DNA of 4,902 nt from a virus (taxonomy: Duplodnaviria > Heunggongvirae > Uroviricota > Caudoviricetes): IMG/VR virus record IMGVR_UViG_2703718771_000001. One strand, written 5' to 3'. Positions within the stretch are counted from its first letter, which is position 1, and the number at the start of each line of letters is the position of its first letter. The notes beneath the pieces are model-generated. The model saw only the letters and a list, made by a program, of their open reading frames with translations. It made no database searches and had not been told where the DNA came from. Positions 1-4,879 of the stretch are shown here, one piece after another. The position numbers and the translations under genes are program-made.

Positions 1-223
1 CTCGCTGGCCTGCCGCAGTTCTTCAACTTCCCGGCGCAGCTTTTCGTTCTCAATTTCAGCATCCCTTTCGGCATACCATTTTATGACGGCGGCAGAGTCA
101 TAAAGCACCTCATTACCCTTGCCACCGCCTCGCAGAACGGGCATTCCCTGTTCCTGCCAGTTCTGAATGGTACGGATACTCGCACCGAAAATGTCAGCCA
201 GCTGCTTTTTGTTGACTTCCATT
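1..223 (-). CDS. nu1: Terminase small subunit Nu1, N-terminal part (CDS runs off the 5' edge of the window)
   Basis: Minus-strand ATG at 223..221 opens a frame with no stop to position 1. My translation reads MEVNKKQLADIFGASIRTIQNWQEQGMPVLRGGGKGNEVLYDSAAVIKWYAERDAEIENEKLRREVEELRQASE, which matches lambda gpNu1 from memory (winged-HTH DNA-binding N-terminus). It lies about 189 nt from the cohesive end, as in lambda. Not in the ORF track because it has no in-window stop. Confidence 0.9.
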
Positions 224-894: not shown

Positions 895-1385
895 GTATCC
901 TCCGGATAATAAAAAGCCTGCTTAGTACACTGAGTGCGGATATAGTCCTGTGCCCCTTCCACCTGCTTCTGCATTGTCATCAGCCGTTCTCTGAGGATGA
1001 AATAATCCCGTTCAGCGGTGTCTGCCAGTCGGGGGCCGGTTGCATTATCCACGCCGGAGGTGCCGGTGGCTTCACGCACGGTACCGGGGCAGGTGGCGTT
1101 GATCCGCAGGCGCTTACGACCAGCGGCAACATCAGCGCGCAGAGTTTAATTTTCAGCTCTCGCATCGGCTAATTCCCTCGAGTATCTGGCATCAAGTGCA
1201 GCAACATCACGCTGGCGCTGCTGCATATCAGTAATGGTGGCGTTCGCCTTCTCCAGTTCACTGGCCTTGTTATCGCGCTGCTCTTTGTAGGCGATTGCGT
1301 TATCACGGTAATGATTAACAGCCCATGACAGGCAGACGATGATGCAGATAACCAGAGCGGAGATAATCGCGGTTAACCGACTCAT
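891..1385 (-). pseudogene. Rz: Rz i-spanin (inner-membrane spanin subunit) interrupted by an in-frame TAA at 1146..1148
   Basis: ATG at 1385..1383 gives [29 protein letters not shown]... (N-terminal TM helix then coiled coil), resembling lambda Rz from memory. After 79 codons the frame hits TAA (plus 'tta' 1146..1148). The same frame then continues without further stops as [73 protein letters not shown]... to the stop at 891..893, and this part resembles the lambda Rz C-terminal domain. The two ORF-track entries 1146..1514 and 891..1079 are in one frame (1514-1079=435). Confidence 0.7.
980..1165 (-). CDS. Rz1: Rz1 o-spanin (outer-membrane lipoprotein spanin subunit)
   Basis: 61 aa, [20 protein letters not shown]...: lipoprotein signal peptide with lipobox ending in Cys20, then a Pro-rich mature region ([28 protein letters not shown]) as in lambda Rz1. 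Encoded in the +1 frame relative to Rz, as expected for spanins. Confidence 0.8.
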
Positions 1386-1473: not shown

Positions 1474-1971
1474 TCATTGTTGCCCCCACAAACAGACTTC
1501 ACGCTCAATCTCACGACGAGTCATCAGACCTTTCCATTGCTTACCGCCAGCGTATGTCCAGCGACGTAGCTGATCACATGCGCCTTTGATATCGCCCTGG
1601 TTGATTTTGCGCAGAAGCGTCGATGTTCTGAAATTGCCAGCACCCACGTTGTAAACGAATGAGTAAAGAGCGCCGCGCGTTGTTTCCGGTATATCGACTT
1701 TGATGTACGGGTTAATTTGTCTGGCTACCGTGGCAAGGTCTTTATTCAGGAGGGCTTTGCATTCTGCTTCGGTATACGTTTTACCGGGAATGATGTCTTT
1801 TCCTGTATGCCCGTGACATACAGTCCATACGCCAACGATATCTTTGTATGGTATGTAGCTGACACCTTCCAGACCATCGTTACCACCTGGACCAGTGATT
1901 AACACTGATGCTATAGCAATAGCCCCGCCACCAATAGCAGCTGCAACAGCTTTTCGTAATGACGGAGGCAT
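1474..1971 (-). CDS. R: SAR endolysin (phage-21 R21-like lysozyme with N-terminal signal-anchor-release domain)
   Basis: 165 aa. The N-terminus [30 protein letters not shown] is a Gly/Ala-rich weakly hydrophobic SAR segment, followed by a T4-lysozyme-like domain. Strong resemblance to R21 from memory. ATG at 1971..1969 overlaps the holin stop (TAATG). Confidence 0.9.
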
Positions 1972-2186
1972 TATTCACCTCTCGCAGCCTTTCTTCTGTC
2001 TTCTCTGATTTTGAAGTACAGATTTGTCAGATAAGTCAAAAAGCCCAGAACTAGACTTCCCAGCACACCAATTGCAGCCCACTGTGACGGACTGACCTGA
2101 TCCAACCACTGTAAAAACCAGTATCCCGCACTACCAGCGGATGTTCCGTAGGCAATGCCAGTAGAGATTTTGTCCATTGATTTCAT
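1971..2186 (-). CDS. S: Class II holin / pinholin (phage-21 S21-like) with dual-start motif
   Basis: 71 aa, [71 protein letters not shown]: two TM segments and a charged C-terminus. Two in-frame ATGs (2186 and 2177) give the M-K-S-M dual start of the antiholin/holin pair (S21-71 / S21-68). GGAGG sits 8 nt upstream of the first ATG. Confidence 0.9.
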
Positions 2187-2304
2187 AGCAACGCCTCCGC
2201 AAGTAACGGATTGCGTAGTTCTTATATTGGGAAGGGGAAAAAAGAAGGCCGCGGCATAACTATCACTGATGAGTTCAGGATAGCCAGTGGCTACGGCTCA
2301 GTTA

Positions 2305-2380
2305 TGGTGCTGGTTAACGGACTTGAACCGCTACCCATTCGCTTACAAGGCGACTGCTCTACCATTGGAGCTAAACCAGC
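2305..2380 (-). tRNA. tRNA-like gene, predicted anticodon TGT (Thr), 76 nt including encoded CCA
   Basis: Minus-strand sequence GCTGGTTTAGCTCCAATGGTAGAGCAGTCGCCTTGTAAGCGAATGGGTAGCGGTTCAAGTCCGTTAACCAGCACCA. By hand fold: perfect 7-bp acceptor stem, 4-bp D stem (GCTC/GAGC) with GG in the loop, anticodon loop CTTGTAA, T arm with TTCAAGT loop. One G-A mismatch at the top of the anticodon stem and one G-T wobble in the T stem. Not run through tRNAscan. Confidence 0.55.
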
Positions 2381-2385
2381 ATATT

Positions 2386-2460
2386 TGGCGGGACAGCGTG
2401 GACTCGAACCACGATAAGAAGGTTAACAGCCTTCCGTAATGACCTTTATACGACTGACCC
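2386..2460 (-). tRNA. tRNA-like gene, predicted anticodon GTT (Asn), 75 nt including encoded CCA; possibly degenerate
   Basis: Minus-strand sequence GGGTCAGTCGTATAAAGGTCATTACGGAAGGCTGTTAACCTTCTTATCGTGGTTCGAGTCCACGCTGTCCCGCCA. T arm CGTGG/TTCGAGT/CCACG, anticodon stem GAAGG/CCTTC with loop CTGTTAA. One T-T mismatch in the acceptor stem (4:68), one in the D stem, and a 4-nt variable loop. Immediately preceded on the minus strand by a T-rich run. Confidence 0.5.
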
Positions 2461-2516
2461 AAATAAAAAAAGCCACCGTTGCAACTTAAGAGTCACTAAC
2501 GGCAGCTTATGCCAAT

Positions 2517-2545
2517 AGTGTTGCTCATTTGCTCAATGATGTCAA
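2517..2545 (-). promoter_or_regulatory. Candidate late promoter (pR'-like) immediately downstream of Q
   Basis: Minus-strand TTGACA (plus 'tgtcaa' 2540..2545) lies just after the Q stop codon, where lambdoid phages carry pR' and the Q-utilisation site. The -10 element is weak or ambiguous (AACACT / CACTAT depending on spacer). Position-based call only. Confidence 0.3.
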
Positions 2546-2551
2546 CACGTT

Positions 2552-3040
2552 CTATGCTACATGTTTAATTTTCTCTACACGTTTCCGACTTTTAAACGCA
2601 CTATCCAGAACCGGGTAAATCATAAACAACGAGGCATTAAGGATTTCGTCAACTTCCCGTCGACAGGTTGCGAGCGATGGTTTTTGAATGCGCCCGCCGC
2701 CACGGCATAACATCTTGCGAGGTCTTGCGACGCGATGATAGTAAGATGCAATGGCGTGCTTGGAAGAGCCATGAGCGTAGTAGCTGAGGAGGATTCCAAA
2801 GGCTTTCTTGTCAATGTACATGACGGAATCGACGACCTGAGAAATCAACATTCCATCATCATCATTACACATTGGCCTTGTCATAACTCTTCCCGGCTCT
2901 ACGCTCTCCATGAACTTCGCTATTACGCTGCTCATGCGCTTTTCCAGACGACCTGAATAAACCCATGCGCCCCACAGTTCAAGCCAGCCATTCAGCCACT
3001 CATGCTGTTCTTTGGTGAGGTTTAGTTCTCTTATGCCCAC
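2552..3040 (-). CDS. Q: Late-gene antiterminator Q (short QuuD / phage-21-type family)
   Basis: 162 aa starting at GTG (3040..3038), with AGAAGG 3 nt upstream. The segment [11 protein letters not shown]...[19 protein letters not shown] resembles the WGAW...RPxC-DDD-M-I core of E. coli QuuD (DLP12) as I recall it. It sits between the phosphatase gene and the lysis cassette, the position of Q; it does not resemble lambda Q (207 aa). Confidence 0.7.
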
Positions 3041-3702
3041 GCGCCTTCTCCCTGTACCTGAATCAATGTGAGATTTCCGCAGAACACTGCCCCAGTATCG
3101 ATATACATCTGGTTGGCAAATTTGAGTGGTTTCACTGCTGGCGTATGACCAAAGATAAACGTGTCCGCGCCTTTAATTTCTTTAACGATCCCGTCTTGTG
3201 AGTTGCTGATTCGTTCGCGGTTCCAGATTACCTGCTGATGATCAACTGGCTTTCCAAATTCGTATTCGTCACAAGGATAATCGGCGTGGCAGATGACATA
3301 TTTTTTACCTTTGCTCACCAGTTCGATGATTAACGGAAGTTCTTCTGCTTTATGGGCAAGAGCTTTAGCCAGAATTTCTTTGTCGTAATCGAGATTAAAG
3401 AACCAGCCACCGCCATTAAGCAGCCAGTGATTAACGTTTCCACGCTCTGATAAGCCATCAATCATCATTTGCTCATGGTTTCCACGTACAGCTCTGAACC
3501 AGGGGAATGTGATTAATTCCAGGCATTCAACGTTCTCTGCACCACGATCAACCAAATCGCCCACCGAGATAAGCAGGTCTTTTTTGTTGTCGAATCCAAT
3601 CGTATCCAGTTTGTTCATCAGGTTCGTGTAGCATCCGTGCAGATCGCCAACTACCCAAATATTTCGGTATTTGCTGCCATCAATTCTTTCGTAGATATTC
3701 AT
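3031..3702 (-). CDS. ninI: Ser/Thr protein phosphatase (lambda PPase, calcineurin-like metallophosphatase)
   Basis: 223 aa with the metallophosphatase motifs GDLHG, GDLVDRG and GNHE. Closely matches lambda phosphatase from memory ([54 protein letters not shown]...). ATG at 3702..3700 overlaps the ninG stop as ATGA; GTGAGG lies upstream. Confidence 0.93.
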
Positions 3703-4310
3703 GCGGCCTCACTTCTGCTGTTTCGCAGTTTTTTAAGTTTCTGTTGATACTCCGCCTTGATGGTCCTGCACTCTTCGACAGTCCAGCGATGGCGGTTATG
3801 GTTTGATTCGATTTCGTCTACTGCTTCCTGCCCGATGCGGTTAATCAGTTCGACGCGATACGGAACGAGATTTCCGCTTTTGTGCTGGTTGCACACCACG
3901 CATTGCTTGTGAATATTGCGTTCATCAAATCGGAGTTGAGGTGCCGCAGCAGTTGTCCGGTAATGTCCGGCATCCCACTGAGCAGACGTGAGCGTTCCGC
4001 ACGAGATACATGGTAAGTCGCAGTCTCTTTCTCTGATGAAGGCGTTTACGGCTTGTTGGGCTTGTTTAATCCAGTAACTGCGGGGCTTTAAGGCGAGTTT
4101 TCGAATCTTCAGTTTATCTTTCTGTTTCTGCTCCTCTCGTCGTCGTTTCTTCTCTGCTGCTTTTTCCGCTTTTTCGCGTTCTTTACTTCGTCGTTCGAGT
4201 GCTATCTTGGTTCCACACTCTGGAGAGCACCACCACTGATTAGCGAATGCAGGGTGAAACCATTCCCGACATTCATCGTTTTTACATCGTCTTCGCGCTG
4301 GTTTAGCCAT
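3699..4310 (-). CDS. ninG: NinG / Rap-like recombination endonuclease
   Basis: 203 aa. N-terminal Cys cluster ([24 protein letters not shown]), a Lys/Glu-rich central stretch and a C-terminal Cys/His-rich nuclease-like region (CISCG...HYRT...CVVCNQHK). Matches lambda NinG (Rap) from memory in length and sequence. Confidence 0.88.
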
Positions 4311-4479
4311 CGTCTTCTTCCTCGTACATTGAGCTATTCGGATCGCTCATCAGTTCTGCGCAGCAATCGGAGCACACGTGAACTTCCAGCACATGCAGCT
4401 TCTTACCGCAGTTAGCGCACGTTAAAGCCCGCTCGACGCTTTCTTTCTGGTATTGAAGAGATTGGGATGGACTAAGCAT
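4303..4479 (-). CDS. ninF: NinF-like small zinc-ribbon protein
   Basis: From ATG 4479: [58 protein letters not shown] (58 aa), matching lambda NinF from memory, with CxxC...CxxCC. The ORF-track start at 4536 is a TTG extension. An alternative ATG exists at 4491. Confidence 0.8.
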
Positions 4480-4879
4480 GGCTTTCACCATTAAAAAGTC
4501 GCTTGTAAGCATCAATGTCTCGTTTTGCTTCACCAAGCTTTCGTCTTAATTCCATGTTTTCTGATTCAAGCTTTTCCATGTCTTGCTGGTATCTATCGCG
4601 GTGTTCTTTCCATGCTTTTTGATACGCCTTCATGTATGTCATATTGGCCTTTCTCTTTGCCTGACGAACTGCGTGGTGGTTTTTCACAAACCAGTCAGGG
4701 TCGTTAAATGCTGCTCTGGCGCATGTATACCAATAATTTGTTGCCTCCCTGTTTAGCCAATAAATACTGATAAATGGCAACCGGATAGACACCATTTTTC
4801 GTTGAGACTCTTTCTCGCCAAACATGTGCCCTTTTTTGATGCTAAGGCCAAATCCAGGTTGAATTAAAAGCATTATCAT
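4472..4879 (-). CDS. Hypothetical nin-region protein (135 aa, or 133 aa from ATG 4873) with a predicted C-terminal coiled coil
   Basis: Long ORF immediately upstream of ninF and overlapping it by 8 nt, in the position of lambda ninD/ninE but with no resemblance to lambda NinE that I can recall. The C-terminus (QQDMEKLESENMELRRKLGEAKRDIDAYKRL) is heptad-like; the N-terminal half is Trp/Tyr-rich. Best ribosome-binding site (GAGAGG at 8-nt spacing) favours the ATG at 4873. Confidence 0.5.
   Translation of the reverse strand: MIMLLIQPGFGLSIKKGHMFGEKESQRKMVSIRLPFISIYWLNREATNYWYTCARAAFNDPDWFVKNHHAVRQAKRKANMTYMKAYQKAWKEHRDRYQQDMEKLESENMELRRKLGEAKRDIDAYKRLFNGESHA

Follow-up and report, generated by a model that had tools for sequence, protein, structure and literature searches.

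A 4,902-nucleotide stretch of a caudoviricete genome (IMG/VR virus record IMGVR_UViG_2703718771_000001; hereafter the window) carries a tRNA-Asn gene and a tRNA-Thr gene. The two make up a compact mobile cassette, placed right where the late operon of a phage 21-like lambdoid prophage begins. In our assessment these tRNAs are probably replacements for host tRNAs cut by nucleases—tRNA-Thr against the Old enzyme of P2, tRNA-Asn presumably in the same role—that are delivered late and under the control of Q, with codon supply playing a minor part. That tRNA-Thr counteracts P2 Old has been shown, through published experiments on an identical sequence. The pair itself is already known and is a routine genome feature: phage 21, Sf6, SfI and BTP1 have it in their annotation, as do hundreds of E. 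coli prophages, and several genome papers cover it. It illustrates how phage tRNAs can act as spare parts that resist the tRNA-cutting defences of a host or a rival prophage, and not as codon-usage helpers; here, such spare parts amount to two genes under the switch that turns on late expression in temperate phages.

Two tRNA genes behind the late terminator

A first-pass annotation of the window had folded by hand two tandem minus-strand tRNAs with encoded CCA ends and the anticodons GTT and TGT. ARAGORN, one of the checks that it had named, called exactly two tRNA genes in the entire window, with the same coordinates, strand and anticodons (Table 1). Their Rfam RF00005 scores, 61.5 bits (E 5e-12) for tRNA-Thr and 55.3 bits (E 2.6e-10) for tRNA-Asn, far exceed the gathering score of 29 for this family, and in folding calculations the cloverleaf was the minimum-energy structure of both. 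U8, G18G19, U33, the purine at position 37 (A37), T54-Psi55-C56, A58 and the 3' CCA are present in either gene. E. coli AsnRS relies on G34, U35, U36 and G73 as identity elements, and ThrRS on G1-C72, C2-G71, G35 and U36; tRNA-Asn possesses the full first set and tRNA-Thr the full second set. Relative to their host counterparts, tRNA-Thr is identical to thrU at 55 of 78 aligned positions and tRNA-Asn to asnT at 48 of 78.

Neither cloverleaf is perfect. The anticodon stem of tRNA-Thr is shortened by a G27·A43 mispair at its top, and tRNA-Asn has mispairs in the acceptor stem (U4·U69) and the D stem (U13·U22). At position 14, tRNA-Thr has C14 in place of the near-universal A14, whereas tRNA-Asn is canonical. 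C14 and the U4·U69 mispair are deviations to which no role is known to attach. Those in tRNA-Thr are evidently tolerated, given that an identical tRNA-Thr works in vivo (PMC12445682).

We rejected the idea that the genes are partial tRNA copies of an attP site, for they are full length and sited in the late leader, away from int. Two plus-strand open reading frames (2211-2417 and 2287-2439) run antisense to the conserved tRNA genes and were treated as spurious, and weak Rfam matches to miRNA families at 242-308 were attributed to chance, arising from the cosB inverted repeat.

Table 1 Features of the late region of the window
Feature	Position	Strand	Details	Basis
S21 pinholin/antiholin gene (holin S)	1971..2186	-	dual start Met1/Met4; Pfam PF04971 'Bacteriophage P21 holin S', E 8.6e-36	Pfam; phage 21 annotation
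Long hairpin + CUUCUUUUUU	2238..2297	-	hairpin 2297-2248, directly 3' of tRNA-Thr; CUUCUUUUUU at 2247-2238; right end of the mobile cassette	
tRNA-Thr	2305-2380	-	anticodon UGU (tgt), 76 nt; G1-C72, C2-G71, A73, encoded CCA	ARAGORN + Rfam
Spacer AAUAU between tRNA-Asn and tRNA-Thr	2381..2385	-	5 nt; highest diversity within the cassette (pi 0.11)	sequence
tRNA-Asn	2386-2460	-	anticodon GUU (gtt), 75 nt; discriminator G73, encoded CCA	ARAGORN + Rfam
tR' terminator	2508-2461	-	hairpin 2508-2470, U tract 2469-2463	
50-nt late leader	2461..2510	-	putative transcription start 2510; putative sigma-dependent pause element 2509-2503	homology to phage 21 annotation
Late promoter pR'	2517..2545	-	-35 TTGACA 2545-2540; -10 2522-2517	as annotated in phage 21
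Q-binding element ATTGAGCA/AATGAGCA	2537-2522	-		phage 21 annotation, OL657228
Q antiterminator gene, phage 21 type	2552..3040	-	162 aa; Pfam PF06530 Phage_antitermQ, E 8.8e-25	Pfam; aligns with phage 21 antiterminator CDS

The genes lie within a late control region that is essentially that of phage 21 (OL657228), to which coordinates were mapped as window position = 5161 minus L001 position. The 3' end of the Q gene falls just upstream of the late promoter, and both pR' and the Q-binding element match phage 21, the sole base difference being at window position 2513 (-3), between the pR' feature and the start site. The tR' hairpin folds with -20.2 kcal/mol (z = -4.6; 0 of 200 shuffles folded as well), and tRNA-Asn begins right behind its U tract. 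With transcription starting at 2510, tR' occupying 2508-2461 and tRNA-Asn running from 2460, transcription of the tRNAs would require read-through of the terminator. Scanning 2150-2650 against a promoter consensus gave no sigma-70-like site for the tRNAs themselves, the scan being strict enough to miss the known pR' as well.

By homology with the phage 21 late region, pR' would be constitutive and its transcripts would end at tR', one base before tRNA-Asn, until Q-modified RNA polymerase reads through both tRNAs and on into the genes for holin, endolysin, spanin and virion proteins. Mature tRNAs, their CCA ends pre-encoded, would next be freed by RNase P and 3' trimming enzymes of the host, so that their delivery would coincide with bulk late protein synthesis. 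The position between late promoter and holin that the first-pass annotation had proposed is thus borne out by the alignment with the annotated phage 21 and Sf6 records and by the Pfam matches of Q and holin, and its suggestion of Q-dependent co-transcription with the late operon gains support from this homology. The phage L genome paper leaves it open whether tRNAs of this kind are processed out of the late mRNA or made from a promoter of their own (PMC8022706).

In the late operon, the S21 holin gene precedes all other protein genes. It is separated from the tRNAs by a 118-nt stretch (2304-2187; folding z = -3.5) that contains the long hairpin, which is kept in nearly all of 70 loci, accompanied by a U run only upstream of S21-type holins. 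RNAalifold revealed no compensatory changes in this hairpin, which may act in processing or stability, or as a weak second terminator.

Replacement of nuclease-cut tRNAs versus codon supply

The P2 prophage encodes a Toprim tRNase, Old, that destroys the host tRNA ThrU (its primary target); overexpressed ThrU gives no rescue, but the phage version does (PMC12445682). In the same work, ThrU is described as the sole decoder of ACA in E. coli and as a tRNA of low abundance, the tRNA-Thr of phage 21 shielded cells from Old and was almost fully resistant at site 1 in vitro, and an anticodon change in Thr6, another rescue tRNA, abolished protection (PMC12445682). Independently, the Thr(UGU) of HK446 was reported to restore plating of Old-sensitive phages, and the tRNAs most depleted by Old were Thr, Gly(UCC), fMet, Val and Pro, with Asn not among them (bioRxiv 10.64898/2026.07.10.737580). 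At 100% identity, the window tRNA-Thr has the very sequence of these two phage tRNAs, which the experiments show to be a cleavage-resistant stand-in for ThrU, the tRNA that Old amputates during growth of lambdoid phages.

To relate this to sequence, we compared the recognition features of two nucleases: for Old, a paired CNG at 28-30/40-42 together with stem length, and for AriB, the related nuclease of the PARIS system, U36AAUC|A41 together with U16. Host thrU reads C28U29G30/C40A41G42 with UAAUCA, whereas the window tRNA-Thr reads UCG/CGA with UAAGCG and A16. Its resistance to Old rests on two changes: the anticodon stem no longer has the paired CNG motifs, and G27·A43 shortens that stem. 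The same comparison for tRNA-Asn sets CGG/CCG and UAAUCC in host asnT against AAG/CUU, UAACCU and A16 in the window; hence, the phage tRNA is devoid of the features that its host counterpart offers to Old (both CNG) and to AriB (U39 of UAAU, and U16). AriB targets Lys(UUU), Thr(UGU) and Asn(GUU), and the substitutions U39A, A41C and U16C block or impair cleavage (PMC12409363). Both anticodons in the cassette accordingly match nuclease targets: UGU is that of ThrU, the primary target of Old and a major one of AriB, while GUU is that of tRNA-Asn, a secondary target of AriB that has also been assayed as an Old substrate.

Based on these sequence features, we predict an anti-defence role for tRNA-Asn, which would replace host tRNA-Asn(GUU), a secondary substrate of both Old and AriB; in the literature searched, we found no assays of this tRNA-Asn against either enzyme. 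PARIS as the main target is weakened by the composition of the cassette, as tRNA-Lys(UUU), the prime AriB target, is absent, and for the same reason the pair is probably insufficient on its own against PARIS.

The classical view in genome papers is a different one, namely that such tRNAs speed the late reading of codons overused by the phage, here ACA (Thr) and AAC/AAU (Asn). The genome paper of SfI gives ACA values of 17.3 in the phage versus 7.1 in the host, 24 of the 25 Asn codons in the phage L capsid gene are AAC (PMC8022706), and the low abundance of ThrU as the only ACA decoder points in the same direction. The first-pass annotation had asked for late-gene codon usage to be set against the anticodons. 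ACA accounts for 19-31% of Thr codons in the late genes of phage 21, in its early genes and in the window genes. In its late genes, however, phage 21 uses ACA at nearly the same rate as lambda, whose tail genes are close relatives and which lacks tRNA genes (12.4 in phage 21 and 10.2 in lambda per 1000 codons), and the most highly expressed gene of phage 21, encoding the major capsid protein, uses ACA for 1 of 22 Thr codons and favours AAU (9) over AAC (2). E. coli K-12 has four gene copies of tRNA-Asn(GUU). The SfI authors, moreover, found no Asn bias. Codon supply also leaves the invariant G27·A43 and the recoded anticodon stems unexplained, and sits poorly with the failure of ThrU overexpression against Old toxicity where the phage version succeeds (PMC12445682). 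Given the small gap to lambda and a capsid gene that avoids ACA, we reject codon supply as the main driver and consider it an improbable account of the cassette; since the SfI authors did report an excess of ACA, it may contribute something, yet as an explanation it is weak and describes a minor bonus at most.

Distribution, variation and mobility of the cassette

The pair, annotated by PGAP as tRNA-Thr plus tRNA-Asn, was present in 369 of 5426 complete E. coli genomes. For both genes the window carries the majority allele (59 of ~80 copies in the case of tRNA-Asn). The cassette is likewise common in P22-like phages of Salmonella. When we searched genome contigs with a 33-nt tRNA-Asn pattern, we obtained five matches—in Escherichia sp., E. 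albertii, Shimwellia and two gut MAGs that are probably mis-binned—and these show little beyond the enterobacterial range. At least four types of late promoter precede the cassette: the phage 21 type, the Sf6 type, one other located upstream of a phage 21-type tR', and the lambda-type pR'/tR' of HK446. Of 124 loci that have this tR', 40 are free of tRNA genes, and some relatives with the same terminator harbor a 25-nt tRNA-Asn remnant followed by an ileX/ileZ-like CAU tRNA. The variable cargo at the site includes Gly(UCC), a CAU tRNA and a Thr-bodied tRNA with a UAA anticodon. Degraded forms occur among relatives as well: besides the 25-nt Asn stump, there are a T-arm fusion of Asn and Gly, a GTT->GAT anticodon mutant and a hybrid Thr without an ARAGORN call.

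These degraded and tRNA-free loci, along with the non-canonical features of the window genes (U4·U69 and U13·U22 in tRNA-Asn, G27·A43 and C14 in tRNA-Thr), might suggest that the tRNAs are decaying hitch-hikers, or mere punctuation in the form of RNase P signals separating the tR' leader from the late mRNA. We regard this as very unlikely. Across 67 loci, nucleotide diversity was 0.0085 in tRNA-Asn and 0.0093 in tRNA-Thr, compared to 0.038 over the 62 nt that follow and 0.11 in the spacer, both tRNAs being ~4x less diverse than flanking non-coding DNA. Changes in the stems of tRNA-Thr preserve pairing, either by compensation (G5U+C68A in three loci) or by yielding G·U pairs (C40U, A70G, A49G, C68U), and a single pair-breaking change, G1A, occurred in one locus. 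The window alleles themselves are intact, prevalent and well past the Rfam threshold; anticodon, U33, A37, G18G19, T-loop, discriminator bases and CCA are all in place, and, according to the literature, ACA decoding by the identical tRNA-Thr suffices for the rescue of cells and phages, which indirectly speaks for a mature, aminoacylated tRNA-Thr of about 76 nt. The first-pass annotation had weighed active genes against remnants, pointing to mismatches in the stems. The mismatches are real, but they are not signs of decay: G27·A43 does not vary in ~70 copies and is a reported part of resistance to P2 Old. Altogether, low diversity, pair-preserving changes and the published function of an identical tRNA-Thr favour live genes.

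Equally remote is the idea that the cassette counters other tRNA-targeting systems, such as the Gifsy-1 HEPN anticodon nuclease HepS (Thr, Ile, Ser) or colicin E5-type toxins (Q34 tRNAs, including Asn). Its prevalence in Salmonella P22-like phages would fit, as would the facts that HepS cuts tRNA-Thr (GGU strongest, then UGU and CGU) upon a trigger from lambda-type J tail-tip proteins (PMC13043305) and that colicin E5 targets queuosine-containing tRNAs (PMC12409363). However, the anticodon loops are those of the host (CUUGUAA, CUGUUAA) and would probably still be cleaved by loop-cutting nucleases, all differences between phage and host tRNAs fall in the stem and D-loop, where Toprim enzymes act, and the main HepS target, the GGU isoacceptor, is not supplied by the cassette.

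Returning to the replacement of cut host tRNAs, we tentatively put forward an extended version, which we hold as a plausible conjecture with the odds slightly against it: the Asn-Thr pair may constitute one minimal counter-defence unit of temperate enterobacterial phages against ABC-ATPase/Toprim tRNases (P2 Old, and AriB of PARIS on P4-like satellites). In this scheme, tRNA-Asn would be cleavage-resistant and relieve the toxicity left by tRNA-Thr alone; G27·A43, the recoded anticodon stems and A16 would be adaptive; placement behind tR' would time late delivery; and the variable cargo would be the record of an arms race. If tRNA-Asn is indeed the second half of the countermeasure, the cassette would mark lambdoid prophages able to grow in P2-lysogenic or PARIS-carrying strains.

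Comparison with known tRNA cassettes

The closest relatives of the cassette are those of phage 21 (GenBank OL657228), Sf6 (AF547987), SfI (JX509734), BTP1 and HK446, which share the Asn-then-Thr order, the position behind tR', the 5-nt spacer, the downstream hairpin and the S21 holin/SAR endolysin cassette. Both window tRNAs are 100% identical to the copies in phage 21, Sf6 and HK446. Differences to phage 21 are confined to detail: one base in the spacer (AAUAU in the window, AACAU in phage 21), the base at -3 of the promoter and, between ninG and Q, a phosphatase gene of NinI type that the window phage has in common with Sf6 and phi458 and that phage 21 lacks.

The ileZ-argN-argO cluster of Stx phages occupies the same niche, a late leader between Q and the stx/lysis genes, and is usually explained by the supply of rare codons. 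Its tRNAs are Ile2 (CAU) and Arg, as opposed to Asn and Thr in the window, and the sequences are unrelated. The first-pass annotation had been surprised to find anticodons outside this Ile/Arg set; ARAGORN assigns the same GUU and UGU, and cargo of the phage 21/Sf6 type accounts for them.

Phage P1, another temperate coliphage, has a tandem of the same specificities and order in its ban operon, trnA (Asn) and trnT (Thr), 2 nt apart. Identity to the window tRNAs extends to 45 of 78 positions for Asn and 63 of 78 for Thr, and the P1 context is C1-controlled. As P1 Thr retains CUG/CAG and a 5-bp stem, and P1 Asn retains UAAUCA, we rejected the P1 tandem as an independent case of the resistance logic. 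These host-like motifs therefore imply that an Asn-Thr combination is not always tied to resistance features.

Functionally, the nearest parallel is to the rescue tRNAs of virulent phages, namely T5 Lys, Thr and Asn against PARIS AriB, and T4, T5 and Bas32 Thr against P2 Old. There, too, anticodons match the targeted host tRNAs and substitutions lie at or beside the cleavage sites in the stem: U39 is replaced in Thr and Asn of both the window and T5, and upper-stem mispairs occur in window Thr, T5 Thr and T5 Asn. In contrast to the T5 set, the window cassette is devoid of tRNA-Lys(UUU), and where the virulent phages express an early array of 20-plus tRNA genes, the temperate phages have two tRNAs under late control by Q. 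Identity to the T5 tRNAs is only ~60-64%; the similarity is therefore functional or convergent rather than orthologous.

Late-promoter context of the tRNA pair

ARAGORN called exactly two tRNA genes in the whole window, and both lie far above chance, with scores well beyond the gathering score of 29 of the Rfam tRNA model. The first-pass annotation was thus correct in placing two minus-strand tRNAs here, in their coordinates and GTT and TGT anticodons, and in the CCA encoded at both 3′ ends. The genes are separated by 5 nt (AAUAU). The stem mismatches it reported are likewise real: tRNA-Thr carries G27·A43, and tRNA-Asn carries U4·U69 and U13·U22. Position 14 of tRNA-Thr is C14, as opposed to the A14 of nearly all tRNAs.

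Features of the window
Feature	Position	Strand	Basis
ninF-like ORF	4303-4536	-	
ninG	3699-4310	-	
NinI-like phosphatase	3031-3702	-	
Q antiterminator	2552-3040	-	PF06530
-35	2545-2540	-	mapped from phage 21 annotation
Q-binding element	2537-2522	-	mapped from phage 21 annotation
-10 as annotated in phage 21	2522-2517	-	mapped from phage 21
Transcription start	2510	-	mapped from phage 21 annotation
Pause element	2509-2503	-	mapped from phage 21 annotation
tR′	2508-2461	-	mapped from phage 21 annotation
tRNA-Asn, first base	2460	-	mapped from phage 21 annotation
tRNA pair, between Q and S21 pinholin genes	2305-2460	-	
tRNA-Asn (gtt)	2386-2460	-	ARAGORN; Rfam tRNA model 55.3 bits, E 2.6e-10
tRNA-Thr (tgt)	2305-2380	-	ARAGORN; Rfam tRNA model 61.5 bits, E 5e-12
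S21 pinholin	1971-2186	-	PF04971
Lysozyme-family endolysin	1474-1971	-	
Rz (i-spanin)	about 1388-891	-	
Rz1	980-1165	-	

The 371 nt around the tRNAs share 99.7% identity with phage phi458 and 97.8% with phage 21, whose curated record (OL657228) annotates, in this order, the late promoter, Q-binding element, start site, pause element, tR′, tRNA-Asn, and tRNA-Thr. The positions of these elements were transferred to the window base by base, each being 5161 less the corresponding position in L001, the phage 21 sequence. The tR′ hairpin has a folding energy of −20.2 kcal/mol (z = −4.6). With tR′ abutting tRNA-Asn, transcripts from pR′ would end one base short of the tRNA, and reach the pair only when Q-modified polymerase reads through tR′. 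Homology to the phage 21 late region therefore supports the earlier proposal that the tRNAs would be co-transcribed with the Q-dependent late operon.

Elsewhere in the window, Rz contains an in-frame TAA at 1146-1148 after '...ADARAEN', where phage 21 Rz runs on as '...AENDALRDDV'. Downstream of the stop, the reading frame of the C-terminal half is unchanged and the embedded Rz1 ORF is intact; the spanin gene could be a pseudogene or an engineered or amber allele, or the TAA could stem from an error in sequencing. Beyond Rz/Rz1, and unlike in phage 21 with no bor gene between Rz and cos, the minus-strand stretch 1-411 matches the lambda left end at 403/412 positions. It spans a lambda-type cos site (GGGCGGCGACCT at 411-400) and then enters a Nu1-like gene for the small terminase, whose start lies near 212, so the sequence derives from a prophage or from a DNA form that is circular or concatemeric. 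At 242-308, an inverted repeat that is long and looks perfect gave weak Rfam 'mir-578/mir-9201' matches (E 0.2-0.8). Its place in the cosB region, immediately ahead of Nu1, and its near-identity to the lambda left end show it to be the inverted repeat bound by terminase, and we rejected an RNA gene here.

Cargo and variation at tR′

To place the pair among its relatives, we compared 124 stretches with a phage 21-type tR′, namely those of the window, phage 21, and Sf6 and the remainder from IMG/VR contigs. Asn and Thr follow tR′ in 70 of them and no tRNA in 40; in about seven, Asn is accompanied by a hybrid Thr and a Gly(UCC) resembling glyT, three carry a 25-nt tRNA-Asn stump and then an ileX/ileZ-like CAU tRNA, and a few hold fusions or point mutants. 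Decay thus happens at this site in some relatives. The window itself has the majority allele of both tRNAs. Across 67 gap-free loci, nucleotide diversity was low in tRNA-Asn (pi 0.0085) and tRNA-Thr (0.0093), compared with 0.038 in the next 62 nt and 0.11 in the spacer. In tRNA-Thr, three loci combine G5U with a compensatory C68A; C40U, A70G, A49G, and C68U lead to G·U pairs; G27·A43 is invariant; and the only pair-breaking stem change is G1A, in one locus. Variation in tRNA-Asn is concentrated at the base facing U4, which is already unpaired. Functional tRNAs maintained by purifying selection would be expected to vary in this way; of the two states initially considered, active genes are favored and decaying remnants are not.

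The block conserved among loci runs from the U tract of tR′ to a hairpin 3′ of tRNA-Thr (2297-2248), and several kinds of late promoter precede it. Three of them, the phage 21-type, the Sf6-type, and one other, lie upstream of a phage 21-type tR′, and in HK446 (L136; NC_019714) the block stands behind a lambda-type pR′/tR′ with the same junction, UUUUUUAUUU/GGGUCAG. There, tR′ is directly followed by copies of tRNA-Asn and tRNA-Thr that share 100% identity with those of the window (L136, 821-976); neither is annotated in the RefSeq record, and HK446 is described as encoding a single tRNA in a 2026 preprint (10.64898/2026.07.10.737580). The 2297-2248 hairpin is conserved, with no compensatory changes seen across the compared loci, and the terminator-like U run that follows it in the window occurs only upstream of S21-type holins.

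Several loci carry other cargo. In four (L012, L044, L093, L114), the segment about 120-280 nt past the tR′ anchor holds, after an intact tRNA-Asn, a hybrid tRNA-Thr without an ARAGORN call and then a tRNA-Gly(UCC) that closely resembles host glyT. The 5′ third of the hybrid is phage-like, and its anticodon arm and 3′ half match host thrU almost exactly. The arrangement points to the host thrU-tyrU-glyT-thrT operon as a source, through recombination or capture; Gly(UCC) has also been reported as a target of Old, the Toprim tRNase of P2 prophages (bioRxiv 10.64898/2026.07.10.737580). In L016, L030, and L051, about 220 nt of unrelated sequence separate the 25-nt 5′ end of tRNA-Asn from the CAU tRNA; these loci record cargo replacement at tR′ and provide a link to the Ile/Arg set of Stx phages mentioned in the first-pass annotation. 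L107 has, after tRNA-Asn, a class I tRNA-like gene with a Thr-type acceptor stem (G1-C72, C2-G71, A73) and anticodon UAA, which ARAGORN does not call and which is the 'tRNA-Leu' of phage L (PMC8022706). About 35 of the 40 tRNA-less IMG/VR loci (e.g., L018, L027, L007) display a long conserved hairpin (GCACAACAGGTAAGAGCATTG...CAGTGCTCTTATCGTTGTGC, apical sequence variable) directly after tR′, where the tRNA cassette would be; it may be a structured leader RNA.

The pair itself is already known, being annotated in phage 21, Sf6 ('similar to phage 21'), SfI, BTP1, and many others (92 matching phage records), and present in 369 of 5426 complete E. coli genomes (tRNA-Thr and tRNA-Asn by PGAP). The SfI genome paper describes tandem Asn GUU and Thr UGU tRNA genes downstream of Q, shared with Sf6, ST64T, PS3, and p21 (PMC3636060), and the phage L (PMC8022706) and epsilon34 (PMC2629481) papers discuss this position. 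Exact tRNA-Asn matches on two short contigs binned as Segatella copri and Collinsella MAGs (L132, L135) are almost certainly mis-binned enterobacterial prophage fragments.

tRNA-Thr and resistance to P2 Old

tRNA-Thr is likewise known, and its counter-defence function has been characterised. According to Govande et al. (NAR 2025), Old of prophage P2, an ATPase-coupled Toprim nuclease, kills lambda-infected cells by excising the anticodon arm from host tRNA-ThrU(UGU), with cuts at CNG motifs that are paired (nt 28-30 and 40-42), and phage tRNA-Thr(UGU) variants save cells by substituting for ThrU; the phage 21 tRNA, tested explicitly, 'also protected against P2-OLD', its Site 1 being nearly fully resistant in vitro (PMC12445682). 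With the Thr(UGU) of lambdoid phage HK446, phages sensitive to Old regain plating (10.64898/2026.07.10.737580). Both the phage 21 and the HK446 tRNA share 100% identity with tRNA-Thr of the window. Given its loss of the CNG motifs and its shortened stem relative to thrU, the decay-like G27·A43 is thus part of the resistance mechanism.

Anticodon arms of host and window tRNAs
Feature	Host thrU	Window tRNA-Thr	Host asnT	Window tRNA-Asn
Stem 27-31/39-43	ACUGA/UCAGU	GUCGC/GCGAA	GCGGA/UCCGU	GAAGG/CCUUC
CNG motifs 28-30, 40-42	CUG, CAG	UCG, CGA (lost)	CGG, CCG	AAG, CUU (lost)
Anticodon stem length	5 bp	4 bp (G27·A43)		
Positions 36-41			UAAUCC	UAACCU
Position 16			U	A
Anticodon loop			CUGUUAA	CUGUUAA (unchanged)

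Codon supply is at most a side benefit. ACA makes up 12.4 per 1000 codons (19% of Thr codons) in phage 21 late morphogenesis genes, near the 10.2 per 1000 (14%) of lambda, which has closely related tail genes and no tRNA genes, and only 1 of 22 Thr codons in the major capsid gene; over-expressed host ThrU, unlike the phage tRNA, gave no protection from Old (PMC12445682). Asn codons in the capsid gene are 2 AAC and 9 AAU.

A predicted counter-defence role for tRNA-Asn

The sole new element here is a prediction for tRNA-Asn, on which we found no experiments in the literature. The PARIS nuclease AriB, which is related to Old, attacks host tRNA-Asn(GUU) as a target that is secondary yet of biological relevance; it cleaves between nt 40 and 41, beside the U36AAU39 motif, and is blocked or impaired by U39A, A41C, and U16C changes (PMC12409363); host tRNA-Asn was also among the substrates used for ranking Old cleavage rates (PMC12445682). 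The motifs lost relative to asnT, together with the likeness to the T5 rescue tRNAs Thr and Asn, in which U39 is similarly replaced and upper-stem mispairs are present, lead us to infer that tRNA-Asn may be the second half of a counter-defence cassette. Against such a role, Asn is absent from the preprint's list of tRNAs most depleted by Old (10.64898/2026.07.10.737580), tRNA-Lys(UUU), which AriB targets foremost, is missing from the pair, and the U4·U69 mispair is left without explanation.

A further counterpoint comes from phage P1 (NC_005856; L137, 2423-2576), where tRNA-Asn(GUU) and then tRNA-Thr(UGU) lie in tandem in the same order as in the window, 2 nt apart, within the C1-controlled ban operon. 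The P1 sequences differ from those of the window, and this unrelated pair has kept host-like anticodon-stem motifs. The same Asn-Thr pairing hence recurs in unrelated temperate coliphages, P1 and the phage 21-like group.
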